From an uncultured bacterium (GTDB lineage Bacteria; Omnitrophota; Omnitrophia; Omnitrophales; Aquincolibacteriaceae), in the NCBI GenBank assembly GCA_964385615.1, contig CAYLPP010000012.1:16865-80864 (forward strand): a stretch of 64,000 bases of DNA, read 5' to 3'. Below, piece after piece: positions 8,801 through 45,774 of the stretch (positions are counted from its first letter, which is position 1; each line of letters begins with the position of its first letter). The position numbers and the translations under genes were made by a program. Under the pieces are notes generated by a model. The model made no database searches. It had not been told where the DNA came from and saw only the letters and a list, made by a program, of their open reading frames with translations.

Positions 8801-11800
8801 GCGAAGTTCGGAACGGACCATTGTGATATTCGCCAAAGTTCCCGTAACGTCAATTTCAAAATGCATACGCCCTTCACGCATTAAATCCTGAATCTGCTTC
8901 AATGTTTGACGGGCAGTTTCCGAACTCAAGGAAATCGGCTGACTCTGACCTTCAAGCTGAATCTCGGTGACTCCTTTGGCGGCCAGTGCGTCCGCGAGAT
9001 TTTCTTTTTCAAGATCCACGAAAGGCTTCTTTTCATCCCAGGTACTCAAAAAGCGCTCATACCGTTCCTTCCACGCAGGCACAATGCGGTTCACAAACTC
9101 CCCACCTTTTCTCGCGAACTCCGCCTCTTTCAAAGCTCCGAGTCCGGTCAAGTGCGGAACAACCATCGCGCTCGCCAGCTGAATGGTCGGAATGACGGCT
9201 TCAACCGTCATCTGATTTTTACGCGACGCATCGAGAAACTTTTGAAAAAGATTATTCGTGTACTGCAGGATATGATCCTGCTCATCGGGTCTCAAAGTCT
9301 CAAGGCTGGCGTAAAAAGCCGCGCTTAAAAGCAGAATCTGGCGCTCTTTCTCAGAAGTTCCCGCGAGAGTGCGTCCATTGATAAAAACAACCCACCCGGA
9401 AGATTGAGGGAAAAGAATATTTTCGTACCCGGCCTGGTGAAAAATAGTGCCGACATTCTGAAATGCCTTATCGCCCGCGGGAATCACCGATAAACCCGCC
9501 TGACGTTCCTTGAGTGCGGTATTCAAAACCGAAATAACCGCGGGGTCGTTATAAACATAAACACCTGTATCAAGTCTCACACCGTAGCGCCTGTCGATCG
9601 GCTCAAGGGTGCGGCTTTCGGAACGGGAAAGAACACGAATCGCCGTTGAAGAAGACTCGATTAAATCCAGAATTTCATCCGGCCGGCCCATTACGCCCAG
9701 AGAGTGATCTTCCCAGTGGTTTCTTAAATAATAAGCAAGATCTCCAAGCAGATTTAGCGCGCGGGTAAATTGACCGGCTAAAAACTCGTCTTTAACCGTG
9801 TCAAAAATTCCGGAGCGTTCTCCGTCCCAGGCAGATAGAATTTCTTTGGCGCGCTTAAGATCATGCAGTAATTTTTCAGCGCTGGATCCGCCCGGAACCG
9901 GCGTTTTAAAAAAACGGGAGAACTCCCCTGTCGGCCGAACGCCGGGGGCAAGCGTCACAAGAGCGAGAATATCTTCGCCATAACCAGGAACTTCAGACAT
10001 GGAGTAATCACTGCTCCGGCCGATGGCTTCATACATTTTACGCGCGTCCGCGGAACGGTAGTTAGCCGAATACCAGCGCTGAACCGCACCGCTCCTTAAA
10101 AGCAGTTTGATCGCGCGCTGCATATACCCTTTGCCTGTAATCACGCTTTTCAAATCGGGTGCCAGCACTTCCCAATCCCTGCCGTTTTCACGGTAAGCCA
10201 GGCTGGCTTTGGCGGCGAGTTCCCTTGAAGTCCGGTCAAAAACAAGAAGGAAATACTGATCTTCATCATACCCGTAGGGCGTCGGCATTTCTGATCGCAC
10301 CAAAATGACATGAAGATCTTTAAACTCCTCTGAGAACTCCGGTCCGTCTACGAGAAGAGCGATTTCATTCCCTTTGGATTTTTCAGTTTTTGGATATTCC
10401 CGGACAAGCACCGCCTGATCTGAATCATTCAAAGCGCGGACTTCCGACCGCGGTGAAACGAAATAAACAACTCCCGTTCGAGATTCTTTCAGGTAAGCCG
10501 TATGAATTGAAAATTCATCGACATTCATATCTTCCCGAAGATCAAAACGAAGATTCGCGCGGTCCGCGATAAAGGGAACCGCCTGCTTGTAGGCCGAGAT
10601 AAGCGTTTCACCCAGATCGTTAACGATCAGATAGCTTCCGGAAGGGCTGATTGACTTTAGCGCCGTCAAAAAAATGTCGCGCATTCTTTGAATTAAATAA
10701 GGGAAGACTGCTGCCGGCGCGAAGTTTGAGTACAAAGAGTATTCGACTGAACGGTACACGGGGTTCATCATTGCCAGCGCGAAAATATAATCGTAGTGTT
10801 TCCCTTTCAGCTCACTGTAGCTTTGGTAAGCGGGAATTTCCTGGTCCAGACCAAAGCCTCTGTGAAGTTCTACCTGAAAAGACAAATATTCTGAGTCAGG
10901 CTCAAGAACCGACGTTTTTAAACCGAGTTTTTCCAAAACCACCGGAAGGTAATCGCCGCTTCCAGGGCCCAAAACCAGCGCGGTTTTACCGGCTTCCAGC
11001 TTCAAACTTTTCAGTTTCTCAATAAGTCTCTGCTGGGTCTGATCATCAAAATCAGTCAGCCCGGAATGCGCGGCCACTTCCTCAATGACCGCGGAAATTT
11101 TCTCTTGCGTCACGAGTCTCGATTCGGAGCGGGCGGAAGCCTGTTTTCTAAAAACGGCCCACTCGTAACCTGAAACAGGATCCCACGGATCGCGCTCCTT
11201 TGAAACCCAGGATTCTTTTCGAATTCTGCCCAAGGGAATCAAAATCCGTTTTCTCTCCGCAACAGAAGCTTGAGGTTCCGCGCGGGCATAAATAGCCGCC
11301 TGCGAAACCAGAACCTTTCCGCCTTCAGCGGTTGCTTCCAGGATTTTGTTCCAAAAAGCAGTTTCATGCGCCAAATCTCCTCCCCACCCGGCATTTTTAA
11401 CGATTGAGAAATCTCCCTGAACCTCTGCCTCTTCATATTTTTTAGGCACAAGAACAACTTTAACTTCCCGGCCGGTAACCCGGTGTTTAAGCGTGAGAGT
11501 TAAATCCTCCCCCTTCTTAAGCGTTTCTTCCCAGCTTTTATAAAAACTGAAATCCCAGTAATTCTCAATTTCAAAGTCTCCGCTCCTGAGCCAGTCAATG
11601 GAGAACCCGACAGAAATCCGGGCAAGTTCTGAATAAGAGGGATCCACGAGATAAATCGTCTCAAGTCCCGGGAAAAGAGAAACCATCAGAGAGAGCGTTT
11701 CATTATCTTTGCCCGAAGCCAGGTAAACACCTTTTTTAGGCTCAAATTTTTCTTCCTGGAATAATTGTTTCATTTCAGGAATCCAGTCTCGCTCACCAGC

Positions 11801-14800
11801 ATTGATCCGGTCTTCCGTTCTGAGTTCGGAACGGGCCGGCAGCGCAATCACCTGAGACGCTGGATTCGCTTCCGACTCTGTACTGACTTCCGTCCCAGCC
11901 AAAATCAGCTGATCGCCGGACCGTTGGTAAAGATCCCAATCCACGACCGGTTTATCGAAAGCGTTTGTTCCAATATTGATGTTGTAAATCTCTCCGCCGT
12001 CACGAAGAGCGGTTCCCATCTGCTGGAGGGCTTTATTAATAGTTTCATCTGAAAAATAACTGACCCGGCCCCGGACCAGCAGGCCGGAGACACGCATAAA
12101 ATCGTATTGCTCCGGCAAAGGCAGAAAAATATCCTGGCGTTTAAACTCGAGAATGTCCGGATGCAGGCGGGCAAACTCTTCGGCTTCAGGGCTTAGCAGA
12201 CTCACATAAGGAAGCTTCTCTTTTCGAACACTATCCATTTTTCCAAAAATCCGGGTACCTGACTCAGCAAGCGCGTTCCAGGCGGTCGATCCCCGTTTCA
12301 CAATTCCGGATTTTTCGGTCACAATCTGAAGGAGTTCCCCTGAATCGCTAAAAAGATAAACCGCGAATTCTCCCTGCACCACATAAAAACCCAGAGTCCG
12401 GTCATAGCCGGTAATCTTGACGCCTTTATCCTGATAATGACGCGCCAGCTCCAGAGTGGTCACGCCTTCAGAAACCGCGAAATCGGCAATTTTTAATTTT
12501 TTATCTTTGTTTTCAGATTTCTCCATAAAACGGTCGAGCACCGCAAAGGTGCGGTCAAGCCTTCCCGGCCAGGTGCGTCTGTTGATAATATCCGCTTTTC
12601 CATCCGTTCCGCCTTCCCGAAAAATGACCGCCTGAAACTGAATTTGCCGGAGAATCTTCAGAAGGTCTTTTTGTTTTTTTCCTGAAAGTTTCGGATAAAG
12701 TTCTCGAAGGCGGGCGTAGGTCAATAAATTGCCGTTATAGGCGAAAATGGTCACTAAGAGTTCATATTCTTCAGAGTCCGCGTCCGCGGCCAGGAAAAAA
12801 GGAATTAAACTTTCGACATTCTGATTGTAAAGCTGTTCAGCCGCGCTCGCCATTTCCGAAAGCCGCGGTTTGGAAAATCTTTCAAGAGGAGATGTTCCTC
12901 TTAGCAATTCAGCTTCTTCACGCAAAAACTCGGGGAACGGCATCCGAAGCTCAGAACGAGCACCCTGGACTTTCTCGATTGAAATTTCAGGAAGACTTTC
13001 AGCCTGAGGAATCGTTCTTCTAAAATCGACGGGTCCTTCGTCCCAATTGATCAGCGCTTTAAAATTCAGGCCCGCGTAGAATTTCTCCGCGTCTTTACTT
13101 ACATTCTGAAGAATAAAGTTTTGAATTCCCTGCCGTTGAGCCAGCATCATAAGCGTGATCATCAAAGCCCGGCCGGCACCGCGGTATTGCCCGCGGACCG
13201 ATTCAGAAACATACAAAGCTTCCGAAAAAGCTGAGGCGATGCCATCTTCAGGCGCGTGCAGAAAAGAAAACGATTCCTGCATTTCAACCCGGTCGCGGTA
13301 AAAACGGGCGTGGGCAAAGCCCGCTTCCCGCGGGCCGGCTTCAGTCATTTGAAAAACTCTAAGCCGGTAACGCTTGAAGGTAATAACATCTTCTATCGAA
13401 AGCTGGAATTCGAAGACTGAACCATCATCCGCCGTAATGCTGAATTTTCCGCCGGTTTCAGGATCCAGAGAGTTCAGAATCTCAGCGCGCAGTTCAGAGC
13501 GCTTGGGATAAGTCAGGCCTTTCTGAACGCGGAAATTAAGAATCCTGCCTCCCTGGGGCTCGCGCTGACCGGGCGGAACATGAATATTAATGGAGTGAAG
13601 CGGGCCGGGTCTTTTAGTCTCACGGGTCAAATCGATTTTGATCAGCTTGGGTGAACGAAATAACGGAACCTGATGAGAAAATCTTTCAAAAGTTCCCGGC
13701 CTCTGCGCGTCTTCGTAAACAAACGTGATAATAACGGGCGGTTCCTGCTCAAAATCTTCTCCGGGATTCGGCGCCGCGGCCTCATTCCACAAGGCAATTT
13801 TAAATTCATCCATATCCCCCAACGGCCGGCCGTCTTCCCGGCTTAGAACAATATCCACCGGAGGAAGACCGAAACGGGTTGTAATCTGAAAACCGCTGGA
13901 AGGATCATGTTTAAACGGCACTGTATCAAAAAGAGGCGGCGTTAAAACCCGGACCGATGAATCAAACTTCTGAAGGTCTTCGTCGCCGAAATCATCCGTC
14001 AGGCTGACCGCAGGGTCCAGCACTTGAACGTTTACAGAGGGTTTGGGAAGATTTTTATTTCCCCCGCTTGAATCAAAATACCAGTATAAAACTCCGCCAA
14101 CCGCAAGCATTAACGATACAGCAAGAAGGAGAATTCCCCCAAAATTAAGGAACCTGGCTGAAACCACATCCGCCTGCTTCCGCGCGGAAGATTTCAGATT
14201 GGACTCTGCCAAAAGCAAATAGATCAGAAAGAGCCCTGAAAAAATCTTGCTGTTCTCCGGATCAATGGAAACTTCCGGAAGTGTGAGGGGCTGCTCCGCC
14301 TGCCCGCCGGACAAAGTAAAGTGAAACCGGACGCGCCCTTCTTCCGCGGTCAAATAAAACGGACTGGCTTGAGTTTCGTTTAACCCCAGTTCCCGGCGGA
14401 TCAATCCGTTTAATTTCTCCGCGAAATCTTCCGGGGAAGATCCTTTGATTTCCTCTCCCCCGTCATCATTTCCATCAAGCGGCTTCTTGCGCAATTCCAG
14501 TTTCAACTCGTCACCGGCCCACGCGCCCTTTTGAACAATCAACAAACGGTCCGGATCATATTGCAGGCTCCAAAGCGCGCCGTCGTGGTGCCCCATAACG
14601 CTGAATTTTTTCCATGCCGGATTGAGTTTCTTTAAAATCGAGTCGATTTCGGAGGCCGCCGTCCAGACAGGCTCCCAGTCTTTACGCTCCTTAAATATGG
14701 ACGTCTCCGATAAAACAGTAACGGCTCGGGCCAATTTCTCCTGATCCGCCTCACCCTGCATCCGCAATTCCGAACGGCGAAATTCAACGACAAGGAGTCC

Positions 14801-17614
14801 TGGTTTATCGCGGATATTAACCGCTTCAACTGAATCGACCGTAAATCCGTTTTGAGTCAAAAAAGCCCGGACTTCCTGTTCATCCTTGAACACCTGCCCC
14901 AGATGAGAGACAAGCGCGTCAATTTCCCGCGAAGGAACATTCAAAGCGATTCCCGCCTGTCTTAAAAAACCTTCGCCTGCCTCTTTTTCCTCAAACGGCG
15001 CGTAGCGGGAAACATAGTCAAAATATTCCTGATACATTTGCGCCAAAATACTATCGACGTCAGAACTGACCACGGTAAAAACAGGGTTCCACCGCTGTAT
15101 ATTCTGCTTCACAATAAACATCGCCTTTGCTCCCAGTTCAGCGGAATGAGGCTTCAAGCTTTTACTCATAGCGTCAAGATACGTTTGAGCGGTGCTTTCA
15201 TATTCATCCAAAGAAACCGCCCGATCTAAAAGGCGCCGGGTTAAGTTAAGAAATAAAATGCTCTGCCTAAGATCGTTAAACTGAAATTGACGGGAGGTAT
15301 CGATCGCAGAATTTTTAACATGAAATCCAAAAAGAAAACGGGCTCTGGGAGCGGCTAAACTTTTCAGCACTTCGAGAGTTTTTAAACGGTCCGTGTATTC
15401 AAAAGAATAAAGTCCGTAAATCAAATCCTGAGGGTCTTTCACGTCAAGTGAAGTCACCTCTTCAGCCGGTTTTACAATGACATTAAAACCCGGACGCATA
15501 ATGTTGCGTATCCGGCCCTTATCCAGCGAAGGTTCAATCACTGTGATCGGGTAATGCTGGTCTGAATCAAGCTCCTCTCTCAAATCCATAGAAACGGATA
15601 AATCTCCGTCGCCAACAGCCAGAATACGGGCCTGACCCCCGGCCAGAGAAACCAACCGCTTGACCATCGCCGTTTGTGAGATAACCGATACTTCATCCCG
15701 CGAGTCACGAGGCACTCCAACAAAATCATTAGTCAGCTCTCCCCAGGCCTGAATTAAACGATTTGAAGCCCGGAGTTCGGAGCGGGATTTAAGATCAAAC
15801 AGGTCCCGGGTTAGTATCGCCGCACCGCTGACACGAGGGATAATATTGGAAGATTTAAAGAGGTTGAGAACCTCAGGCGTGTTTAAACGATTTTGAGAAT
15901 CCAGAGTTTTCATTTTGAGAAGAAAATTTTCTATATTTTCTTTCCACTTTAGGCTGAAGCCGTCCGCAGACTCAGAACGAAAGACTTCGTCAAGATAACG
16001 GAGATACTGCCCCGCTTGTCCGGTTTTTTCTTCCGAAGCAAGATCGCGGATAATCTGATCCCGCCAAGTCTTCAGAAGTATGGGGTTTTCAGAGCCCGCC
16101 TTTAAAAGCTGATCCCGGAGAGCCCGGGTGAAACCCTCAGAAACCGACAGTTTGCCGTTTTCAGGCTTTAAATAACCTTTCCACGAAATCTCGCCGTTCA
16201 TCTGAGAGCGGTAAATGGAATCGTCGGGCATCGCGTTAATCGCGGGAATAACCGTGATATAAGAAATCCCGTTCTCCCGCAGCTGTTCCTTCAGTCCGGC
16301 GGTATGAAAACCGCCGGCAACCATCACGGCCTGATTTCGGCCGTTTTCACGCATCAGCCTCTGAAGATTCTTAAAGAAAGCGCGGTCACGCTGTTCCGCG
16401 TTTTGATAGAAAGCTGAGCTTGTTTCAAACCGCCCTTCTTTTTTAATCTTTTCCCAACCTTCACGGCTAAGTTCAAGGCGCACCGCTTTTTCCTGAAGGT
16501 CAAGCAGCTCACTCTCCCGGTCGAGCTTTCTTTCTTCGTTGTTGCGGAAAAGCTTTTCCTTCGCGTCACCCGCGTATTTTTCAAATTCGCGGAAAACCCG
16601 GGTTCCTTCCATTTCGCGCAGACGCGCTTCATGCCTGGCCTGACGCTGAAGTTCCGGTGAAAGCGAAAAAGGAATACTGTATTTTGAAGCTGTTTCTTTG
16701 AGATACATCAGAAAAGACCGGGCGGACAGCGTTGAGGTTTTAAAAGCCTGGAGGGATTCGTTGAATTTCCTCAGATCTTCCTCAGAGAATTTGTTCAAAA
16801 AGGAGGTGAAACTGTCAGAAATTTTTAACACCTTCGTTTCAAATGAGGCATCTGCCGGCATCTGGATTTCCTTGATGAGAGCTTCAAGATCTGATCCTTT
16901 TTCCGGCGGCAAGATAAGAGCGAGCTGTTCAAGTATCTGCGAAAAATTTTCTGCGTTTTCTGAAAACTTCCGCAGGGACTGGTCGAGATCAAAAAGTGGC
17001 TGAGAATAAATTTCCTTTTTCTTTTTTTCAAGGACTTCAGCGCGTGCGTGATTCTCTTTTGAAAGAACCGGTTCTTCAGCCATCGTCTGAGAGTAGAGAT
17101 TTAAGCCGTCTTCGTAAAGATTCCAGTCTTCAGCCCCGTGATAAACCGCGGGCGTGTTCCCCAAAAGAGCGGCCGCGGCTCCGCCGGGCAATTCCCCCTT
17201 TTCCATGAACGCTGAAAGAACTTTTTCAAGCTGACGCTTTTCCGGAAAATTTTTAAAAATCCGGGCATCCAGCTCTGAAGAAGCGCCTTCCAAAGCCACG
17301 ATTGAAATCCCGTAATTTTCTTCAAAATGGCTGATCAGATTCTGAATGTTCTTTTGCGCTTCCGGCACTGAGTGAGCGTCTTGAATAAGAACGACGGTCT
17401 GGCCGGACGAACCCTGGTAGGAATCTTCAATGCTTCCACTCTCGCCCGGAACTGAAACCTGTCCAATTTCCCCCGGAAACTTAGCTCCAGCAACTGAGGA
17501 AGGACCCGCCGGTGCCGCTATAGCTGGAAAAGGCTTCGCTCCCGTGAGCAGAAAGCTCAGAGACAAAGCTAGCGCGATTGTTTTATGTAAAAAATTTTTG
17601 ATTTTTTGAGGCAT
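2807..17614 (-). CDS. giant (4935 aa) secreted/membrane-associated multidomain protein. It has an N-terminal signal peptide and a TraB/GumN-like region, then several class-I SAM-methyltransferase-like modules, a GNAT-like module and an HprK-like P-loop module. Fifteen R-S-E-x-R linker motifs punctuate it.
   Basis: A single uninterrupted ORF of 14.8 kb. The N-terminus MPQKIKNFLHKTIALALSLSFLLTGAKPFPAIAAPA looks like a signal peptide. Motifs recognised by eye:
- TraB/GumN-like: VVLIQDAHS ... AVMVAGGFHTAGL.
- MTase motif I and post-I-like: ARILAVGDGD, KIADFAVSEGVTT...LRDGGEIY, ALVLGPGSGDY...PSGSYLIV, VDLVISVGLF...INRVLKPGGRALI.
- GNAT-like: YRGAGRALMITLMMLAQRQGIQNFILQNVSKDAEKFYAGLNF.
- HprK-like: LHAGLVQDSVTGKTGIIMAPSDTGKSTLAYYLSNRSGAPAFKILADDDE.
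- Hydrophobic TM stretch: FGGILLLAVSLMLAVGGVLYWYF.
Domain calls are from motif inspection only. Confidence 0.85.
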   Translation of the reverse strand: MPQKIKNFLHKTIALALSLSFLLTGAKPFPAIAAPAGPSSVAGAKFPGEIGQVSVPGESGSIEDSYQGSSGQTVVLIQDAHSVPEAQKNIQNLISHFEENYGISIVALEGASSELDARIFKNFPEKRQLEKVLSAFMEKGELPGGAAAALLGNTPAVYHGAEDWNLYEDGLNLYSQTMAEEPVLSKENHARAEVLEKKKKEIYSQPLFDLDQSLRKFSENAENFSQILEQLALILPPEKGSDLEALIKEIQMPADASFETKVLKISDSFTSFLNKFSEEDLRKFNESLQAFKTSTLSARSFLMYLKETASKYSIPFSLSPELQRQARHEARLREMEGTRVFREFEKYAGDAKEKLFRNNEERKLDRESELLDLQEKAVRLELSREGWEKIKKEGRFETSSAFYQNAEQRDRAFFKNLQRLMRENGRNQAVMVAGGFHTAGLKEQLRENGISYITVIPAINAMPDDSIYRSQMNGEISWKGYLKPENGKLSVSEGFTRALRDQLLKAGSENPILLKTWRDQIIRDLASEEKTGQAGQYLRYLDEVFRSESADGFSLKWKENIENFLLKMKTLDSQNRLNTPEVLNLFKSSNIIPRVSGAAILTRDLFDLKSRSELRASNRLIQAWGELTNDFVGVPRDSRDEVSVISQTAMVKRLVSLAGGQARILAVGDGDLSVSMDLREELDSDQHYPITVIEPSLDKGRIRNIMRPGFNVIVKPAEEVTSLDVKDPQDLIYGLYSFEYTDRLKTLEVLKSLAAPRARFLFGFHVKNSAIDTSRQFQFNDLRQSILFLNLTRRLLDRAVSLDEYESTAQTYLDAMSKSLKPHSAELGAKAMFIVKQNIQRWNPVFTVVSSDVDSILAQMYQEYFDYVSRYAPFEEKEAGEGFLRQAGIALNVPSREIDALVSHLGQVFKDEQEVRAFLTQNGFTVDSVEAVNIRDKPGLLVVEFRRSELRMQGEADQEKLARAVTVLSETSIFKERKDWEPVWTAASEIDSILKKLNPAWKKFSVMGHHDGALWSLQYDPDRLLIVQKGAWAGDELKLELRKKPLDGNDDGGEEIKGSSPEDFAEKLNGLIRRELGLNETQASPFYLTAEEGRVRFHFTLSGGQAEQPLTLPEVSIDPENSKIFSGLFLIYLLLAESNLKSSARKQADVVSARFLNFGGILLLAVSLMLAVGGVLYWYFDSSGGNKNLPKPSVNVQVLDPAVSLTDDFGDEDLQKFDSSVRVLTPPLFDTVPFKHDPSSGFQITTRFGLPPVDIVLSREDGRPLGDMDEFKIALWNEAAAPNPGEDFEQEPPVIITFVYEDAQRPGTFERFSHQVPLFRSPKLIKIDLTRETKRPGPLHSINIHVPPGQREPQGGRILNFRVQKGLTYPKRSELRAEILNSLDPETGGKFSITADDGSVFEFQLSIEDVITFKRYRLRVFQMTEAGPREAGFAHARFYRDRVEMQESFSFLHAPEDGIASAFSEALYVSESVRGQYRGAGRALMITLMMLAQRQGIQNFILQNVSKDAEKFYAGLNFKALINWDEGPVDFRRTIPQAESLPEISIEKVQGARSELRMPFPEFLREEAELLRGTSPLERFSKPRLSEMASAAEQLYNQNVESLIPFFLAADADSEEYELLVTIFAYNGNLLTYARLRELYPKLSGKKQKDLLKILRQIQFQAVIFREGGTDGKADIINRRTWPGRLDRTFAVLDRFMEKSENKDKKLKIADFAVSEGVTTLELARHYQDKGVKITGYDRTLGFYVVQGEFAVYLFSDSGELLQIVTEKSGIVKRGSTAWNALAESGTRIFGKMDSVRKEKLPYVSLLSPEAEEFARLHPDILEFKRQDIFLPLPEQYDFMRVSGLLVRGRVSYFSDETINKALQQMGTALRDGGEIYNINIGTNAFDKPVVDWDLYQRSGDQLILAGTEVSTESEANPASQVIALPARSELRTEDRINAGERDWIPEMKQLFQEEKFEPKKGVYLASGKDNETLSLMVSLFPGLETIYLVDPSYSELARISVGFSIDWLRSGDFEIENYWDFSFYKSWEETLKKGEDLTLTLKHRVTGREVKVVLVPKKYEEAEVQGDFSIVKNAGWGGDLAHETAFWNKILEATAEGGKVLVSQAAIYARAEPQASVAERKRILIPLGRIRKESWVSKERDPWDPVSGYEWAVFRKQASARSESRLVTQEKISAVIEEVAAHSGLTDFDDQTQQRLIEKLKSLKLEAGKTALVLGPGSGDYLPVVLEKLGLKTSVLEPDSEYLSFQVELHRGFGLDQEIPAYQSYSELKGKHYDYIFALAMMNPVYRSVEYSLYSNFAPAAVFPYLIQRMRDIFLTALKSISPSGSYLIVNDLGETLISAYKQAVPFIADRANLRFDLREDMNVDEFSIHTAYLKESRTGVVYFVSPRSEVRALNDSDQAVLVREYPKTEKSKGNEIALLVDGPEFSEEFKDLHVILVRSEMPTPYGYDEDQYFLLVFDRTSRELAAKASLAYRENGRDWEVLAPDLKSVITGKGYMQRAIKLLLRSGAVQRWYSANYRSADARKMYEAIGRSSDYSMSEVPGYGEDILALVTLAPGVRPTGEFSRFFKTPVPGGSSAEKLLHDLKRAKEILSAWDGERSGIFDTVKDEFLAGQFTRALNLLGDLAYYLRNHWEDHSLGVMGRPDEILDLIESSSTAIRVLSRSESRTLEPIDRRYGVRLDTGVYVYNDPAVISVLNTALKERQAGLSVIPAGDKAFQNVGTIFHQAGYENILFPQSSGWVVFINGRTLAGTSEKERQILLLSAAFYASLETLRPDEQDHILQYTNNLFQKFLDASRKNQMTVEAVIPTIQLASAMVVPHLTGLGALKEAEFARKGGEFVNRIVPAWKERYERFLSTWDEKKPFVDLEKENLADALAAKGVTEIQLEGQSQPISLSSETARQTLKQIQDLMREGRMHFEIDVTGTLANITMVRSELRADQSASPAITDFNGFPLGKAQVAVLKKYKVDWFLDVIGNGDNSLRKDPYSFDPNFPWFDGLARPEKPVYETIRSLMWQTVIKKAETEKDLEGVQELTRWQDRPVAILHAGLVQDSVTGKTGIIMAPSDTGKSTLAYYLSNRSGAPAFKILADDDENTYVMLNQQGQPVAVGNLLPETVVTKYKHIGEGPAAEKPLPVLEDDDVHPVEFVIFLDSSRALGDVKTHEGISGAAEESILDDAYVSVKGMKREAFLTSFAKIPVLTLGHQLPAGYSRELSDDETFSKDAKTVGEWVSKFPARSEARMNSSIHMAHFQLTAKQIERKLGISVDELLSGKIVDIGLETDSEGLFAPDILTPMNLVTELRKQGKDIVGLDPNAPAEPAGFYVKGVAQKMPFEDSSVDLVISVGLFDPAYWYQIIDKPVMAYYETALEINRVLKPGGRALIIPYSRIDDEFFRAFRTISFEVAPIDEKVGEYLFTKPARSEVRSDKSISSSSLQITAQDFSEIDDLYGWVEQNTGENDKILVLPFWLFQGAIADKATFRQTMVAQLLPLHWKMPPGGPYKVFIGKKFSEGQTIYSFLISEISLGQEKHPASPSGTTLVLHNTNIRYLPTILQHGLYAMPLRYIFHNGNIKPPSDGVTLYFDLPNNWLVSETGLDYALSAENDQLGASISDEAAAIAPLGFKGLKVAEEAGFLRRIDMSRLNIDATQSDLKERYSRGDINESAFLELSEMLEKLKRNNESPAASERNSALRSEMRARTEEEWRTYLTKLVAKLEKGQAPTPENVAAVSNGELDAAAIRGAMSHHKISRSSVGMVRERIIQRSREEWVVYLRGLAQGLDPKLRRTVANVARASGLTSRQIRKAIRDHNIPYSEIGIEQGGLGRPRNDARSEIRVDYSKLINSVNRQWNSLDGKGYFRIARQIYENLSDNGKRLYFHNYDSRAAIFESVHGTGFESEEDYHSELSDADYAQLVLEGLALLVLDGPLNAREQAEQYKNAGQIVLLDQLNAKQFAALELILTKFGKKFPQNNKLTLSELFSMAFSYFHGDDAVSDYIDFSRRFRYAPGEYAYTLTAFSLLAAAFHVQGSLEFHSWLDNEDVEAFSPDVLWVIAQLSKDQLAEVTKENQGSVRKLLKISLLKVIFSLSPVLAGPGKKRFTGELAKTRRELAGQPYFDELEAAIQANAGKLYEWHQDLSREYAAGLPFLLAFQWDFFSGYYSRNSRETSVQRSLSLMELIQAADQPGIQPALENTPIGAVSDNAPVKFWNGIKKTRTRKVMHDWEKLGNFLNSFTRSEVRAAPEETRILEQFLLNVSFAREIIDQTVPENLREAAMAVYVLEQLATAKRVSAVSEPINFKPDVQTYLIRLLKKEGILKDGYADRTADALPAMRVKQTSAPATLKTQSIRGIAVEYFPEAKASVLVPSVVRVVNEVNQRYLTSDAQIAEYRKQLSNLTASGNFKVSNFPANPAVLRNRFISRDRLEKYVKVRDFLKTKGYQGRVVNPLGGGDIETASYLTDSSYYRIFDALPFEGTLDEKTLRLLREVYQSEKAALGYNSTLVLGAIGFAKAPLLWELEAMGVDMGKVKITKDAAADRYFIDYEWSYDGNSAPTPRRIEYNQREFEAGETAPEGVFNPEDGIYLSKANLDGGIFKNEELPAVVVSFQDAYRVGYRKYSIKDILGIQPQANSGSSYAQIEAGAVLVKDQVSEDDAWGDLRTELSARSEVRIAPKADAVKLVAEALAPGNESRAVAVQIDESVIADLIAQYRKNKEALRLKMLAQADVSRFDAVQAVMNDLDSGLDQISGAVSRKFAVGLVLPDGKIDDHFLAGFLSGLDKGVVGELLKDGRVPEVFRKGLSDLAIQVRDVHVEKTNAIQSEQAEVPAAFLGSKIAINEMFLPLFLNPADLEALQRKNPEAARWIGKVVSRALIHMADLSQDENYRGKPQEIRDELLRRLNLFERDFQSLITLTQSGGRLAFGVNTALAEALFEEKVSRVIGSAA

Positions 17615-38295: not shown

Positions 38296-39072
38296 TTAAT
38301 TCCATCCGCCACCCCGCACATTCTTCCTGCGGTAGAGCTGACGGCGAGACTCTTCGTAACGGTTCAAATCATCCTGATAGCTTTGCTGTTGTCTGGAAAT
38401 AGCCTGCTCGAGCGAGGAAGTGTCCTGCCCTGCCGCTCTCTGCTGGTCTAACTGCGCCTGCATATTTCTGAGGTCGATTTCAGAACTCGCCATGGACCGG
38501 CGGTTACGGTCCACGCTGTCGTAATAATCCTGAAGATCGGCATCATTTTGGGGGTATTGCTGTTGGCGGTAAAAACCACGATTCTGATTGAACCCGTTGT
38601 TGTAGCCATTATTGTAACCGTTGTTATAACCATTCTGATTGTAGCCATTCTGCTGAGCCAGCTGTCTTTTGCGCCAGGCTAATTGCTGACTGCTCTGCTG
38701 ATAACGGTTTAAATCGTCCCGGTAGCTTTGCTGAAGGCTGGCGATAGTCTGCTGATCCGCGGAAGTGTCGAGGCCGGCCTGCTGATGCGCCTGCATCTGG
38801 CGGTAAGCTTCGTTGAGGTTGCGCTCTGAGCTTTGCACCGAATTGCGGTTCCGGTTCAAGCTTTCATAGTCCTGATCCAACACGGAATTGTCCTCATAAT
38901 AACCGTCATTGTAGCCATTGTTATAGCCGTTGGACTGAGAGTTCGAGGAGGAACCGCCCAGGACCTGCCCCAGAATATCCATGAATTTGTCACTTTTAGC
39001 GTAAGCAGGACTCACTGCCAACGCCATGAAAACCCCTGCCAAAAAGACCTTCTTAATCCAGCCTGCGCGCAT
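38296..39072 (-). CDS. secreted low-complexity protein with NGY/Q-rich internal tandem duplication
   Basis: Signal peptide MRAGWIKKVFLAGVFMALAVSPAYA. Two ~100-aa repeats, each starting with (NGYN)n and followed by a Q-rich helical stretch (...RNRNSVQSSERNLNEAYRQMQ... / ...RNRRSMASSEIDLRNMQAQLD...). Confidence 0.6.
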   Translation of the reverse strand: MRAGWIKKVFLAGVFMALAVSPAYAKSDKFMDILGQVLGGSSSNSQSNGYNNGYNDGYYEDNSVLDQDYESLNRNRNSVQSSERNLNEAYRQMQAHQQAGLDTSADQQTIASLQQSYRDDLNRYQQSSQQLAWRKRQLAQQNGYNQNGYNNGYNNGYNNGFNQNRGFYRQQQYPQNDADLQDYYDSVDRNRRSMASSEIDLRNMQAQLDQQRAAGQDTSSLEQAISRQQQSYQDDLNRYEESRRQLYRRKNVRGGGWN

Positions 39073-39160: not shown

Positions 39161-39409
39161 TTACCCGCCGGGGCCTTTGTAGGTGAAAATATCTTCGAGG
39201 GTGAATTTTTTTTCGAGGGAGCAGTCATTAAGCGCGCGCAAAACCCTGAGTTGAGTCCGGGCCTTGATCCGGCGCCCTTTGCGGGCTTTAAGAACCATGC
39301 GGAAAGTCAAATTGTCCGTCGATTTGTCCACAAGATCGGCGTCTGAAAGCATCAACTCTTTCATAATTTTATCCAGCGGTTGAACGCCTTCATCCATTTC
39401 AGGATTCAT
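39161..39409 (-). CDS. conserved hypothetical small protein, paralog A (82 aa)
   Basis: MNPEMDEGVQPLDKIMKELMLSDADLVDKSTDNLTFRMVLKARKGRRIKARTQLRVLRALNDC... It is about 85% identical in protein to ORF 42781-43023. The start overlaps the O-methyltransferase stop (ATGA). Confidence 0.6.
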   Translation of the reverse strand: MNPEMDEGVQPLDKIMKELMLSDADLVDKSTDNLTFRMVLKARKGRRIKARTQLRVLRALNDCSLEKKFTLEDIFTYKGPGG

Positions 39410-41447: not shown

Positions 41448-41711
41448 TTAGCCAGCCAGGCGGTCAGTATGCTCAGCGATCCAAAGTTTGATCAATGAAG
41501 TGCGCGGCACTCCAATGCGATCCGCTTCCCTATCCACTTTTTTGAGAATCTCACCCGGAATATCAATATTGATTCTTTGAACCGGGTAAACAACGCGAGC
41601 CGACTTCAAATCAAGATGCTCGGTAATATCTTCCTTGCCTTCGTCGAATTTCTTGTCAAATTCCTCAGCTGAAATTTTATTTTTCTTTTTCATTTTTAAA
41701 ACTCTCCTCAA
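41448..41711 (-). CDS. brnA: BrnA antitoxin (RHH/CopG-like)
   Basis: SAEEFDKKFDEGKEDITEHLDL...VDREADRIGVPRTSLIKLWIAEH matches the BrnA pattern. It overlaps upstream brnT. Confidence 0.7.
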   Translation of the reverse strand: MRRVLKMKKKNKISAEEFDKKFDEGKEDITEHLDLKSARVVYPVQRINIDIPGEILKKVDREADRIGVPRTSLIKLWIAEHTDRLAG

Positions 41712-41958
41712 AAATTTTTATCTCTTTTTCCCAGCTTCTCCTGACAGAAATAATGCGGGCCGCCTCTTTCCGCCAGGTAAAAACGCACGAGTAATACTTC
41801 CCCTGCCAAATGCCAATAAAGAGAAATCGCTCTTCATTTTCCGATCTGGCTGAAACCATCACGCCTGGAAGCATCCACATTTCCTGCGCTTCTTCAAAAG
41901 AGATGCCATGCTTCACTTTATTTGCTTCAGACTTAGCAATATCATACTCAAATTCCAT
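41677..41958 (-). CDS. brnT: BrnT ribonuclease toxin
   Basis: MEFEYDIAKSEANKVKHGISFEEAQ ... RIISVRRSWEKE is characteristic of the BrnT family. Confidence 0.75.
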   Translation of the reverse strand: MEFEYDIAKSEANKVKHGISFEEAQEMWMLPGVMVSARSENEERFLFIGIWQGKYYSCVFTWRKEAARIISVRRSWEKEIKIFEESFKNEKEK

Positions 41959-42085
41959 ATTAATTATATACCTTTTTTATACAAAAATTGATATTTGAGG
42001 GCTAATTTGACGTAACTGCTTTTAAGGGAATATCTTAGGAGGGATTAACTAAAAGGGAACCGCCCGCAGACGGTGTTTTTGAACT

Positions 42086-42102
42086 GGTCGCAAATTGCGA
42101 CC
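42086..42102. repeat. fourth copy of the same palindrome family, 3 bp downstream of the ORF6N stop
   Basis: GGTCGCAAATTGCGACC is a perfect 17-bp palindrome with the same core as the intragenic copies. Confidence 0.7.
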
Positions 42103-42104
42103 GC

Positions 42105-42698
42105 CTAATGAAACCCGATTTTCCGGCGGGAAGGTTCTGAGGGTCTCATCAGCTGGCGAATCGCGGTGAAGATGGCTCTGATTTCTTCATCATGCCTTTC
42201 GGTCTTGCGCTCCAGCTGGTCCAGCTTGGCCGAAAGCTCTTTATGGGCTGATAAAATCTGCCTCAACTTCACAAACGCTCTCATAATCGCGACATTAACA
42301 TCAATAGCCCGGTCGCTCTTCAAAACCCCCGAGAGCATGGCAACCCCCTGCTCTGTAAAGACATAGGGTAAATACTTACTGTGCCGCCCTCTTCCTTCTC
42401 TGTCTAAGGTCACATTTTGTGACCTTAGACGTTCCATTTCAAAGGTCGCATTTTGCGACCTTAAAGAGCCCAGACTTGAGGTTGCAAATTGCAACCTCAA
42501 GTTATCCAGTTCTTCTTTGGTTAGTTGAAACATAAAATCTTCGGGGAAGCGCTTGGGGTTGCGTTTTACCTGCTGGTTTAGCTGTTTGGTGGTAACTCCA
42601 TAAAGATGCGCCAGGTCAGAATCGAGCATGACCCGGTGACCACGGATAATGAAAATGCGCCCTGCGATTTGTTCGTGAGTTAATGTTTTGGAAGCCAT
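42105..42698 (-). CDS. ORF6N (KilA-N-like) domain protein with C-terminal coiled coil, carrying an in-frame repeat insertion
   Basis: IRGHRVMLDSDLAHLYGVTTKQLNQQVKRNPKRFPEDFMFQLTKEE ... KYLPYVFTEQGVAMLSGVLKSDRAIDVNVAIMRAF is the ORF6N signature. The insertion encodes LRLQFATSSLGS-LRSQNATFEMER-LRSQNVTLDREG (3 x 12 aa). Confidence 0.8.
   Translation of the reverse strand: MASKTLTHEQIAGRIFIIRGHRVMLDSDLAHLYGVTTKQLNQQVKRNPKRFPEDFMFQLTKEELDNLRLQFATSSLGSLRSQNATFEMERLRSQNVTLDREGRGRHSKYLPYVFTEQGVAMLSGVLKSDRAIDVNVAIMRAFVKLRQILSAHKELSAKLDQLERKTERHDEEIRAIFTAIRQLMRPSEPSRRKIGFH
42404..42501. repeat. three tandem 36-bp units, each containing a 21-27 bp perfect palindrome, inside the ORF6N coding frame
   Basis: Palindromes: CTAAGGTCACA-TTT-TGTGACCTTAG (42404-42428), AAGGTCGCA-TTT-TGCGACCTT (42442-42462), CTTGAGGTTGCAA-A-TTGCAACCTCAAG (42475-42501). 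Centres are spaced exactly 36 bp apart. Confidence 0.8.
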
Positions 42699-42780
42699 GC
42701 TTCCAAAATACAGAATTTCAGGAGAGGATCAATGAAGACTTGAAGAAATTAAACAGAAAGTGCCGTTTCCGCACACTGGG

Positions 42781-43023
42781 TCACGGACCCAAATAAGTGA
42801 AGATATCTTCGTGAGTGAATTTCTTCTCAGGCGAGCAGTCATTGAGCGCCCGCAAAACCCGCAGTTGAGTGCGCGCCTTGATCCGGCGCCCTTTGCGGGC
42901 CTTTAAAACCATACGGAAAGTCAGATTATCCGTCGATTTATCCACCAAATCCGTATCAGAAAGCATCAGCGCCTTCATGACCTTGTCCAGCGGCTGAACC
43001 CCCTCATCCATTTGCGGATTCAT
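42781..43023 (-). CDS. conserved hypothetical small protein, paralog B (80 aa)
   Basis: MNPQMDEGVQPLDKVMKALMLSDTDLVDKSTDNLTFRMVLKARKGRRIKARTQLRVLRALNDC... It is about 80-85% identical in DNA to 39161-39409. Confidence 0.6.
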   Translation of the reverse strand: MNPQMDEGVQPLDKVMKALMLSDTDLVDKSTDNLTFRMVLKARKGRRIKARTQLRVLRALNDCSPEKKFTHEDIFTYLGP

Positions 43024-43074
43024 TCATTATCCCTGCAACCCGGCACCGAGAGTACCGGCACCCAATTCAATTAC

Positions 43075-43623
43075 CTAATCCTTAAACTCTTTAAAAAATT
43101 GATCTAAGTAAGTCAAGGTCTCTTTCACGCGTGCTTTATTACCTCTTTCAAATGCCTGAGGCAATGGACGCAAAATGTATCTTTCGTATTTTCCTGCCAA
43201 ACTTGGAAATATCTCTAAAATAGTCTCTTTTATTGTTAATTTTCGCTGTTTCGCATACGTCTTAATTTTATCCACATATGGCTGAGGCAAAGAAACCTGT
43301 CTTGTTTTAGGGTTTTTTAACTGCCCAGTAAAATCAGGCGATCTCTTATGCCAAATTTCAGCGTAGTCTATTTCCCTTTTATCGTAATCAATTTTCAAAT
43401 CTTTGTAATTCATTCGCCCCGTAACGACTCTATTCCGCATTGATTCAGAATGACGACGGGTAGAAAAATTTTTTTTGATAAAAAAATGAACGGTTTGTCG
43501 GCTAATTGGCTTTTTATACTTATTTTCTATCTGTTCTGCGATTTCTTTGGCAGACATTCTTTCATTTATGTACCAATTCTCAATTTCCGCTAAAGGCACA
43601 AGATTTCCTAGGATTTTTCGCAT
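43075..43623 (-). CDS. hypothetical protein with N-terminal HTH-like segment, in low-GC island
   Basis: 182 aa. MSAKEIAEQIENKYKKPISRQTVHFFIKK resembles a helix-turn-helix. Local GC is about 36% against about 51% for the flanks. Confidence 0.5.
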   Translation of the reverse strand: MRKILGNLVPLAEIENWYINERMSAKEIAEQIENKYKKPISRQTVHFFIKKNFSTRRHSESMRNRVVTGRMNYKDLKIDYDKREIDYAEIWHKRSPDFTGQLKNPKTRQVSLPQPYVDKIKTYAKQRKLTIKETILEIFPSLAGKYERYILRPLPQAFERGNKARVKETLTYLDQFFKEFKD

Positions 43624-43675
43624 AGACTTCCCGATTTGAACGCAACGCTGAATGTGTTATGGCCAGTCTTAGAAT

Positions 43676-44470
43676 TCATTTTTTCTGACTCACAAACTCC
43701 CAGATATTAAAGCCTTCCCTACTTAAACCTGTTGGTTTTGACAGATCTTTTTTACTCAACCTTTGAATAAATTCGATCATTTCGCTTTTCGATTCACCCC
43801 TCTTAGATTTGCTGGTGCCCTTTTTATTCCAAACAAATGAGATTGCACCAACCAACAAATCTACCAACTGCAGGAGGTTATGGTCTTTAGCTTTCCCTTC
43901 GGAGATAGAACAATGTTCTAAATAACTTTCAACTCCATTCGTTTTTCTCATAAAGCGCCAGTTTGTGGTTTGCTCTAAAATCTCAACACCTCGATTGAAG
44001 TCAGAGGAGTACCTATCAATTATTATTTCAAAAAAATGATCCCCCTTATTTTTCATCAATCCATCACATAAGAAAGTACAATAAAATTTAACATACCCAG
44101 TCAAAGCATCGCCCCCCATGTAAACCTTGTGATTTAAAGGGTACTTAACCGTATCGACAACTAAACAACGAAAACGAATTCGACCGATATTTTCCAAAAA
44201 AAGCCGAAGGAATTCTTTATAACCTTCTCGATACCGTCCTTCCGTAGGAATTTTCTCCCACTTCAGCTCGTGCATTAAGCGGTATTTGGTTTTGATATCT
44301 GCTAGTTTTTTTTCGATCTTCTGGATTATTAAATCTGATTCATCAGGTTTTGTTGGGATGAAATATACAGCCCCCAGCACAAAGTATCTATGCCCTGATT
44401 GAGATGATTCATCGCAAAAGGCGATGATTTTCTTATCAGCGTGAATTTTGTCAGGTAAATTCAGATTCAT
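43676..44470 (-). CDS. DUF3800 family protein
   Basis: 264 aa. The two diagnostic DUF3800 motifs are present: N-terminal D-E-S (IIAFCDESSQSG) and C-terminal Q-x-x-D (NLLQLVDLLVGAI). Low GC. Confidence 0.65.
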   Translation of the reverse strand: MNLNLPDKIHADKKIIAFCDESSQSGHRYFVLGAVYFIPTKPDESDLIIQKIEKKLADIKTKYRLMHELKWEKIPTEGRYREGYKEFLRLFLENIGRIRFRCLVVDTVKYPLNHKVYMGGDALTGYVKFYCTFLCDGLMKNKGDHFFEIIIDRYSSDFNRGVEILEQTTNWRFMRKTNGVESYLEHCSISEGKAKDHNLLQLVDLLVGAISFVWNKKGTSKSKRGESKSEMIEFIQRLSKKDLSKPTGLSREGFNIWEFVSQKK

Positions 44471-44565
44471 TGGTGTTTTAGCGAAATTCCAATCCGTCTA
44501 AAGCCAGTTAGATCATTTTCTAATATATCCTAATGACAAAGGGAAAGTTTCCAGATTACTAGAAA

Positions 44566-45774
44566 TTAAAGTTTGCTAAACCAGGCGGTGAGGCGCTTGG
44601 AGGCTTCGGCGAGCTGGGCGTCGGAGGTGGCGAAGCTGAGGCGGATGTGCTTGTCGGAGCCAAAGGGCTTGCCGGGCACCACGGCCACAAGGGCTTCGGC
44701 CAGGAGGCGGTCGGAGAGGGTCACGGAGTCGATTTTGGAGTCGGCGCAGTTGACCCAGAGGTAGAAGGCGCCCTGAGCCTTGAAGGGCTTCAGGTGCGGG
44801 ACTTTGGAGATTTGTTCATAGAAGCTGGTGCGGCGCTTTTCGAAAACCTGGCGCAGTTTCTCGGCTTCTTCGTCCCCTTTTTCGAGGGCCACAACACCGC
44901 CGGCCTGCGAAAAAGAAGTGGGGTTGGAAGTCGAGTGGCTTTGAATGCTTCCCGCGGCGTCGGCGATTTCCTTGTTGGGGAAAGCGGCGTAACCCAGGCG
45001 CCAACCGGTCATGGCGTAGGCTTTGCTCATGCCGTTGATCACAATGGTGCGCTGGGCAATTTCAGGGTCGAGTGAAGCGATACAAACGTGTTTGCGGTTG
45101 TCGTAAATCAGCTTTTCGTAAATTTCGTCGCTGATCACCACGACTTTCGGGAAATCCTTGAGCACCTGCACCAGGGCCTGCATTTCTTCTTTGGAGTAAA
45201 CCGCGCCCGTGGGGTTTGAAGGTGAATTCAGGATCAAAACTTTGGTTTTATCGCTCAGGCCTTTGCGGAGAATTTCGGGCGTGAGTTTGAAGTCAGTCGT
45301 TTCGTCGGTATAAAGAAAAACGGATTTACCGCCCAGCACCGTGACCATTTCGGGGTAACTGAGCCAGAAAGGCGCGGGAATCGCGACTTCATCGCCTTCG
45401 TTTAAAAGGGCGAAGAGCACATTGAAAATAGAGTGTTTGGCGCCGGTTGAAACGATGATCTGGTTCGCGGGGTAAGTCAGGCCCTGATCTTTCAGGAGCT
45501 TGGCCGCGATGGCTTTGCGAAGGTCGATGGTGCCGACTGCGGGTGTGTATTTAGTTTGGCCTTTTTGAAGCGCGGTAATCGCGGCTTCTTTGATGAAGGA
45601 GGGTGTATCGAAGTCAGGCTCACCGGCGGACAGGGAAACAACGTCTTTGCCCTGCGCCTTCAGTTCAGCCGCCCTGGCCGCGATGGCCAGGGTGACTGAA
45701 GGAGCTACTGAAAGAACTCTGCGGGAGAGTTCGATTTTACTGTTCGTCCCCTTTAAAGAACTTGCGGAGGCCAC
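44566..45774 (-). CDS. pyridoxal phosphate-dependent aminotransferase (aspartate aminotransferase family)
   Basis: SLSAGEPDFDTP, the NSPSNPTG motif and the SKAYAMTGWRLGY lysine motif. The 5' end overlaps the rplQ 3' end by about 38 bp. Confidence 0.9.
   Translation of the reverse strand: MASASSLKGTNSKIELSRRVLSVAPSVTLAIAARAAELKAQGKDVVSLSAGEPDFDTPSFIKEAAITALQKGQTKYTPAVGTIDLRKAIAAKLLKDQGLTYPANQIIVSTGAKHSIFNVLFALLNEGDEVAIPAPFWLSYPEMVTVLGGKSVFLYTDETTDFKLTPEILRKGLSDKTKVLILNSPSNPTGAVYSKEEMQALVQVLKDFPKVVVISDEIYEKLIYDNRKHVCIASLDPEIAQRTIVINGMSKAYAMTGWRLGYAAFPNKEIADAAGSIQSHSTSNPTSFSQAGGVVALEKGDEEAEKLRQVFEKRRTSFYEQISKVPHLKPFKAQGAFYLWVNCADSKIDSVTLSDRLLAEALVAVVPGKPFGSDKHIRLSFATSDAQLAEASKRLTAWFSKL

Follow-up and report, generated by a model that had tools for sequence, protein, structure and literature searches.

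Do two adjacent AT-rich genes on a bacterial contig form a phage-defence system, and if they do not, which of them is likely to matter? The genes lie side by side on a 64,000-nucleotide (nt) stretch of DNA from an uncultured Omnitrophota bacterium (contig CAYLPP010000012.1), called the window here and taken at its full length. One encodes a 264-amino-acid (aa) protein of the DUF3800 family and the other a 182-aa DNA-binding-like protein; both are on the minus strand, exactly where the first-pass annotation of the sequence had placed them. That annotation had read the two genes as an inserted foreign island and as a compact phage-defence or abortive-infection module. Our analysis suggests that the plausible defence candidate at this locus is a single gene, and that the pair is not a new two-gene system. 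We put the probability that this is a small acquired island, with a stand-alone candidate DUF3800 defence nuclease as its functional core, at roughly one half.

DUF3800 is a large family, with more than 6,000 clusters matching its profile. Its members turn up repeatedly next to retrons, CRISPR effectors, BREX systems and phage moron sites, and 11 RNA motifs have been linked to the family. To our knowledge, neither an activity nor a solved structure is known for any member. The answer given here draws on computed composition, family membership, predicted folds, conserved residues, the neighbourhoods of relatives and the conservation of the pair; a nuclease activity and its substrate, a defence role, a regulatory role and co-transcription are proposed on that basis.

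The DUF3800 protein and its predicted fold

The family assignment had been made from motifs, and it held when the profile itself was run. The 264-aa protein matches Pfam PF12686 at 54.4 bits (E 2.9e-14, cut-off 21) over profile positions 1-148 of 149, and carries the DES motif at residues 20-22 (CDESSQ) and the QxxD motif at residues 201-204 (QLVD). On this profile match it is a true DUF3800 protein, and DUF3800 is its sole domain. Models of the PADLOC candidate gene PDC-M04A also match it, at 101.2 bits (E 1.3e-29) and 64 bits, as does PHROG 3732, a phage family with no assigned function (84.5 bits). NCBIfam gave no match. Five residues, D20, E21, D152, Q201 and D204, are invariant across a 28-sequence alignment of the family.

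An AlphaFold2 (AF2) model built on that alignment (pLDDT 84.4, pTM 0.87) has a predicted RNase H-like fold. When the model was compared with the PDB using Foldseek, the top match was the Thermococcus RNase HII (Tk-RNase HII, 2dfe; E 1.7e-4, probability 1.0), followed by RNase HI, Argonaute PIWI and other RNase H-fold proteins, and such folds dominate the list. The viral models gave a DUF3800 protein as best match (E 1.3e-8), with RNase H, RuvC and terminase nuclease folds behind it. No PDB chain matches the protein by sequence. In the model D20 and E21 end strand 1, D152 ends a later strand and D204 lies in a helix, close to Q201. An adjacent D-E pair ending strand 1, with two later carboxylates, is a likeness to RNase HII, the type 2 RNase H, and matches the published description of the DEDD site of RNases H (PMC7736814). 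We infer that the protein would be a nuclease that depends on metal ions, with an RNase HII-like core whose carboxylate set is intact. The RNase H-like prediction agrees with published analyses, in which DUF3800 was modelled on RNase H2 (PMC7736814), described as an RNase H fold with a catalytic rearrangement (PMC10910872) and treated as an RNase H-fold nuclease family that is accessory at some class 2 CRISPR loci (PMC12669027).

Relatives of the DUF3800 protein

A search with the single sequence found only three relatives, at 45%, 42% and 26% identity. The profile search with the DUF3800 family returned 6333 proteins at E<=1e-5, and three further clade members at 41-45% identity ranked above a very large 237-aa clade at 22-28%. 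Judged by these rankings, the protein sits in a rare stand-alone DUF3800 clade. The gene downstream of DUF3800 changes from locus to locus (PglX, an HExxH protein, Mrr, or none), which fits a stand-alone module (Table 1).

The clade recurs repeatedly in immune or mobile contexts. The first-pass annotation had described DUF3800 as a family of horizontally acquired, defence-linked settings, and the clade relatives bear this out, being found in BREX, Mrr/integrase, DUF5131 and integrase-island loci. In the clade loci examined the DUF3800 genes are 4-6 GC (guanine plus cytosine) percentage points under their flanks. Relatives at 25-30% identity occur in temperate P2-like phages, in non-structural positions.

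A separate observation concerns one group of these loci. At L017 6001-7724, and also in L018-L024, the clade DUF3800 gene is overlapped by 4 nt by the gene for a 306-aa HExxH protein without a Pfam match. This may be a different two-gene DUF3800 pairing.

The two genes as a pair

If the two genes formed a module, their families would be expected to travel together, and a check of neighbourhood conservation had been proposed with the original reading. Hidden Markov models (HMMs) of both families were run against every open reading frame (ORF) of all fetched loci. Loci with both families were limited to the window and L004, which is a fragment of the same organism. In the examined loci from other genomes, no DUF3800 gene had a homologue of the 182-aa protein at its locus, and no member of the 182-aa family had a DUF3800 gene at its own. 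Conservation as neighbours across genomes, the criterion for a type II toxin-antitoxin pair, was thus not found here. The two island genes are not a recognisable or conserved two-gene system, and the idea of a compact defence or abortive-infection module lost its footing in the loci examined.

Comparison with known DUF3800 systems

We compared the island with three described kinds of DUF3800 system. PDC-M04 comprises a DUF3800 protein (A) and a protein of about 160 aa (B). The 264-aa protein matches PDC-M04A, and its closest relative sits inside a BREX system, a setting in keeping with the PDC candidates, which were found via 'guilt by embedding'. It differs from canonical M04A proteins, which score about 302 bits (301.6) against its 101.2 and are merely 24-27% identical to it. 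PDC-M04B is absent: there was no match among the 63 window ORFs, and tblastn of the M04B protein against the window was empty. Comparison by hhalign found the 182-aa family related neither to PDC-M04B (probability 0.3%) nor to the 306-aa HExxH partner in L017 (2.3%). When PADLOC models were scanned against the same 63 ORFs, a check that the first-pass annotation had called for, the only strong matches were PDC-S05 (the ORF6N protein) and PDC-M04A; the others were weaker or generic (mad2, helicase/Cas3, PbeA, IetA). The scan thus returned a DUF3800 candidate gene at the island but no complete system.

In retron type VII a reverse transcriptase is fused to DUF3800 or lies beside it (Mestre et al. 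2020, PMC7736814). The likeness lies in an effector-type DUF3800 domain modelled on RNase H2. The island, in contrast, has no reverse transcriptase or retron non-coding RNA, and the neighbours of its DUF3800 gene are an aminotransferase gene and the gene for the 182-aa protein. Retron-linked DUF3800 also lacks the Q of QxxD (PMC7736814), whereas the 264-aa protein keeps QLVD.

The CRISPR-linked forms, TPR-DUF3800 with Cas12a2/Cas12a3 and Csx32 in the Cas13 system CASK, share with the island an RNase H-fold DUF3800 protein, there beside immune genes. The CASK operon, which has the kinase Csx33, also encodes a DNA-binding helix-turn-helix (HTH) protein, Csx34. The island has no Cas gene, CRISPR array, TPR domain or kinase, and Csx34 is unlike the 182-aa protein in being more than 550 aa long, with two HTH domains and control by phosphorylation, where the 182-aa protein combines an HTH with a ribbon-helix-helix (RHH) module. 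The window holds no array-like tandem repeats and no strong Cas matches, only weak generic helicase matches to Cas3 models away from the island.

Work by Weinberg in 2017 reportedly described DUF3800-associated RNA motifs, DUF3800-I to XI, drum and skipping-rope. At Rfam gathering thresholds the whole window gave only a tRNA, at 17.9 kb, and a permissive scan of 41900-45000 (E<=10) found no DUF3800-associated RNA motif, retron or other relevant family. Because M04B, reverse transcriptase, Cas, kinase, TPR and array are all absent, the island does not qualify as PDC-M04, retron type VII or CRISPR-linked DUF3800.

Composition and origin of the segment

The low GC content noted in the first pass, about 36%, was reproduced. 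The interval 43075-44470 has a GC of 0.365, where the window averages 0.491; this is about 5.4 standard deviations (sd) under the mean and the minimum among all 1396-bp sliding windows (sd 0.023). Sliding GC runs at 0.345-0.383 within 43000-44600 and at 0.47-0.62 in the flanks, where the aminotransferase gene is at 0.556 and the 80-aa gene, of native composition, at 0.510. The two island ORFs have the two lowest GC values of the 64 ORFs (0.350 and 0.371; mean 0.492, sd 0.038) and also the lowest GC at third codon positions, GC3 (0.328 and 0.377; mean 0.541, sd 0.065). The low-GC signal is therefore present at the codon level, beyond amino-acid composition. Composition points strongly to a foreign origin, and the 1.5-kb AT-rich segment was probably acquired horizontally.

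The segment is bounded above by the stop codon of the aminotransferase gene (44566) and below by the 51-nt spacer ahead of the 80-aa gene, within which similarity to the paralogous 80-aa locus begins at 43032 (repeat D1 = 42794-43032). The 80-aa gene is, as had been noticed, one of a paralogous pair. At the paralogous loci homology is limited to the gene, hence no insertion site is defined. The neighbours include no integrase and the nearest tRNA is 25 kb off, so the surroundings give no sign of site-specific insertion. Of the claim that a foreign island had been inserted here, the foreign composition stood; flanking repeats, an integrase or a tRNA to go with it were not found. One comparison bears on the insertion. 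The single close relative found for the aminotransferase gene (at least 90% identical, JGI 3300071358, on a 1910-bp contig) has its next gene 25 nt past the stop codon, against 95 nt here, which hints at a different neighbour there.

Between the two island genes no terminator-like site was found by scan, and co-transcription of the DUF3800 and 182-aa genes is plausible. A sigma-70-like promoter match lies at 44539..44512 in the 95-nt spacer, with 9 of 12 positions agreeing. That spacer has no significant RNA structure (z -1.07) and no Rfam match even at E<=10. The 51-nt spacer has an 8-bp GC-rich hairpin after the stop codon of the 182-aa gene, with a fold of -15.6 kcal/mol that is not significant (z -1.59). 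Of the four spacers that were folded, none gave a better fold than shuffled sequences.

The 182-aa protein

The second protein had been described as HTH-like. It is indeed DNA-binding-like, and we predict a dimer-type DNA-binding protein that combines an HTH with an RHH module. No match in Pfam, NCBIfam, PADLOC or PHROG is over threshold. Below threshold it touches HTH-type models (Recombinase, E 0.01; Clr5, YlxM and HTH_33). Among 5.8 billion proteins a word-indexed search recovered nothing but the protein itself. HMMER, run exhaustively over 1.84 billion representatives, gave 22 relatives at E<=1e-3, of which the top three share 52%, 48% and 39% identity with it.

In these relatives an N-terminal HTH precedes the shared motif R-[ST]-H-x-E-[SA]-M-[KR]-x-R-x-x-x-G-R-M-[DN]-Y, which in the 182-aa protein reads R-x-H-S-E-S-M-R-N-R-V-V-T-G-R-M-N-Y, and the C-terminal half is variable. 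In the subfamily of the 182-aa protein that half opens with P-K-T-K-x-V-x-L-P. Other members have Cro/C1-type HTH domains replacing the RHH, or added N-terminal Cys-rich segments, and no enzymatic domain was detected in any of them or in the 182-aa protein itself. The family profile aligns with the RHH part of MatP (residues 73-136) at E 1.5e-4 and has a weak match to another RHH protein, ORF56 (E 0.048); no Pfam RHH model reaches threshold on the 182-aa protein. Its AF2 model (pLDDT 83.7) has four helices in residues 11-67 and then a low-confidence linker, a strand at 107-112, helices at 114-126 and 131-138 (pLDDT 93-95), a further strand and a terminal helix. The strand-helix-helix modelled at 107-138 agrees with the likeness to MatP and other RHH proteins. 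The N-terminal half is unlike MatP, being a transposase-type or winged HTH where MatP has a four-helix bundle. Whole-chain Foldseek with the model was uninformative.

A NUMOD3-like reading of RRHSESMRNRVVTGR, as a DNA-binding module of homing endonucleases, was considered and not adopted, with no Pfam NUMOD match at E<=0.1. The nearest to support for it were the sub-threshold Recombinase match and a PHROG 'HNH endonuclease' family (E 0.0034).

The start codon of the gene is ambiguous. The protein deposited at NCBI has 174 aa, fitting a GTG start at codon 9 with AGGAAA ahead of it (43600-43623), and homologues align from residue 3-5 of the 182-aa form.

The family has no match in phage or plasmid collections, and a locus search with a 4-sequence alignment of the family gave only two metagenome loci and no viral locus. 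L008 is the sole other case of a nuclease-like neighbour, and the arrangement at L009 suggests tandem duplication and decay (Table 1). The relatives are for the most part lone AT-rich genes in housekeeping surroundings. Two of them, at L006 8001-8546 and L011 5935-6690, are solitary, lie 8-14 GC points under their flanks and have a long spacer to either side. By appearance the family is horizontally mobile, though no mobility gene is present at either locus.

Table 1. Island features in the window, and settings of the relatives of both island proteins at other loci (identities are to the island protein of the same family)
Feature	Position or setting	Strand	Description
DUF3800 gene, 264-aa product	43676..44470	-	Pfam PF12686, motifs, predicted RNase H-like (type-2-like) fold
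182-aa protein gene	43075..43623	-	predicted N-terminal helix-turn-helix and C-terminal ribbon-helix-helix-like module
Spacer, 95 nt, AT-rich	44471..44565	-	aminotransferase stop to DUF3800 start; upper edge of the low-GC segment
Spacer, 52 nt	43624..43675	-	between both island genes; RNA fold z-score -0.06
Spacer, 51 nt	43024..43074	-	lower edge of the island; GC climbs here
P0003, DUF3800, 45% identical	between BrxC (1489 bits) and PglX (414 bits) of BREX	same strand	gaps of 8 and 2 nt
L013, DUF3800, 42% identical	after a DUF5131 and partner cassette (PDC-M41/M30 models)		before an HNH_repeat protein
L014, DUF3800, 39% identical	followed by a membrane-anchored Mrr_cat nuclease (TM-Mrr_cat)		then two tyrosine integrases
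P0035, DUF3800, 41% identical	8 loci; after an integrase and an Xre/RES toxin-antitoxin pair		306-aa HExxH protein overlaps
P0035 island, further genes			deaminase, HTH_3-Peptidase_M78, Multi_ubiq/ThiF/BubE
L015/L016, DUF3800, 24% identical	canonical PDC-M04 pair		B gene overlaps A by 4 nt (199 bits)
L015/L016, surroundings			MmeI-type enzyme, helicase, T5orf172 protein
P0013, 182-aa family	solitary between SUI1 and DUF188 genes		spacers of 330 and 276 nt; GC 0.38, flanks 0.46-0.48
L011, 182-aa family	solitary between 601-aa and 267-aa ORFs, housekeeping-like by eye		GC 0.32, flanks 0.46
P0014, 182-aa family, 48% identical	L008 1002-2458		lies downstream, after 170 nt, of a 217-aa ORF whose N-terminus is PIN-like (Pfam PIN E 0.038, sub-threshold)
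P0015, 182-aa family	L009 30-879		truncated family-like fragment (E 2.4e-4) directly upstream of full-length P0015

Interpretation

It seems most likely that approximately 43033-44565 is a small horizontally acquired island within a variable patch downstream of the rpoA-rplQ-aminotransferase block, a patch that also contains the genes for BrnT/BrnA and the ORF6N protein. The island would consist of two co-oriented cargo genes that evolve independently, probably transcribed from a promoter in the 95-nt spacer. The DUF3800 protein would most likely be a single-gene anti-mobile-element or anti-phage nuclease, a role suggested because its clade recurs inside or beside immune systems and on integrase-borne islands. 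Such a candidate nuclease would cut a nucleic-acid intermediate of the invader, for example an RNA-DNA hybrid, a structured RNA or DNA, as the fold, the conserved carboxylates and the neighbourhoods lead us to infer. The 182-aa protein is most likely a transcriptional (auto)regulator that may set the expression of the island. It would not be a dedicated partner of DUF3800, having either travelled along with that gene or landed next to it.

Several points weigh against this picture. The resemblance to RNase HII is distant, with sequence identity of about 16% and low TM-scores of 0.35 and 0.41, and a published analysis reports a catalytic rearrangement in DUF3800 (PMC10910872). The fold was assessed by model and fold search. 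The literature searched holds no biochemical or defence activity demonstrated for any DUF3800 protein: none is reported in PMC7736814, PMC10910872, PMC12669027 or the preprint on CASK, in which Csx32 is a DUF3800 protein, and the authors of that system gave Csx32 no role. The PDC systems are 145 untested candidates (preprint 10.1101/2024.01.29.577857). As only about five independent clade contexts were read, 'defence-associated' is a qualitative description. Insertion is read from composition, and the edges of the segment have no insertion scar; they share one 8-mer, which is at chance level, and no repeat longer than 8 nt. The shared strand, the 52-nt gap and the close GC of the two genes (0.371 and 0.350) fit joint arrival and possibly joint function.

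That last point leads to a genuine two-gene module, toxin-antitoxin-like or of the abortive-infection type, in which the HTH/RHH protein would repress or neutralise a nuclease effector until infection. The lack of a terminator between two co-oriented genes of like composition would suit it. The family profile also weakly touches VapB-like chains as well as ORF56, and ribbon-helix-helix domains are typical of type II antitoxins. P0014, a relative of the 182-aa protein, follows a PIN-like ORF, and CASK offers a precedent for an HTH protein, Csx34, regulating an operon with a DUF3800 gene, Csx32. Csx34 is however architecturally unrelated to the 182-aa protein, the closest relatives of the latter are solitary, and the pair is seen nowhere else among independent loci of either family. 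Nor does the arrangement resemble that of real DUF3800 partners (L015, L017), which have 4-nt overlaps, whereas here the nuclease comes first and a gap follows. We therefore consider such a module distinctly unlikely. A bolder form of the idea, which we regard as a long shot, makes the HTH/RHH protein the dedicated repressor or neutraliser of the nuclease in an undescribed two-gene module of abortive-infection or toxin-antitoxin-like type, with the 182-aa family as a new class of AT-rich, self-spreading DNA-binding genes that pair with varied nucleases, DUF3800 here and the PIN-like protein in L008.

The genes could instead be leftovers. A larger mobile element, prophage or integrative, that included the ORF6N gene and BrnT/BrnA could have decayed here, leaving two moron or regulatory genes with no current function for the host. 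The DUF3800 protein matches PHROG 3732 and temperate-phage proteins, the ORF6N protein matches phage anti-repressor families, BrnT/BrnA are also low in GC, and no integrase or att-like repeats remain. Both island ORFs, however, are intact and full-length against their homologues, with every family-invariant residue retained; the 182-aa family is unmatched in phage and plasmid collections; and an 80-aa gene of native composition separates the island from ORF6N, which makes the patch a mosaic rather than a single element. A decaying remnant is thus unlikely. The genes might also be native and merely odd in composition, for instance through Lys/Ile/Asn-rich proteins, and present at this locus in all relatives. 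Part of the signal is a family property, as both families are AT-richer than their flanks at every locus examined. But GC3 depends little on amino-acid content, and by this measure too the two genes are the lowest in the window. Both families turn up extremely sparsely and in scattered lineages, and the spacing after the related aminotransferase gene hints at a different neighbour. This makes a native origin highly improbable.

The value of the locus lies in its simplicity. The family was already known, and what is added here is one more member beside a member of a very rare DNA-binding family; no new mechanism is exposed. The locus contributes a compact, intact representative of a rare stand-alone clade, without an RNA motif or a fixed partner. 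As a single gene of about 800 bp it is therefore a simple test case for DUF3800 function. Knowing that the two-gene look is not a conserved system spares effort on a false lead.

Other features of the window

The 5 kb around the island are a mosaic, in which BrnT/BrnA have a GC of 0.40-0.42, the next lowest in the window behind the island, the ORF6N gene has 0.48, and the 80-aa paralogs have native composition. The ORFs at 41448-41958 (minus strand) overlap and encode a BrnT toxin (73.6 bits) and a CopG-type antitoxin, BrnA-like at 26.9 bits against a Pfam cut-off of 28. The ORF6N-domain protein encoded at 42105-42698 (minus strand) scores 208 bits against PDC-S05, a single-gene PADLOC candidate, and also matches phage anti-repressor PHROGs; its gene contains a perfect 14+14-nt palindrome at 42474-42502.

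The paralogous 82-aa and 80-aa genes lie at 39161-39409 and 42781-43023, both on the minus strand, with 91% protein identity and 82% identity over 239 nt. An O-methyltransferase-like gene precedes one of them, and the island precedes the other. They have no match in Pfam, NCBIfam, PHROGs, PADLOC or PDB, and their 90% cluster holds just these two proteins.

Two further genes, both on the minus strand, stand out. A single ORF of 4935 aa occupies 2807-17614, with Methyltransf_11 at residues 3298-3381 as its sole Pfam match and no recognised domain elsewhere. The gene at 38296-39072 encodes a 258-aa secreted-looking protein that is rich in Q, N, Y and G, has no Pfam match and contains internal 78-nt and 30-nt repeats (two half-copies).

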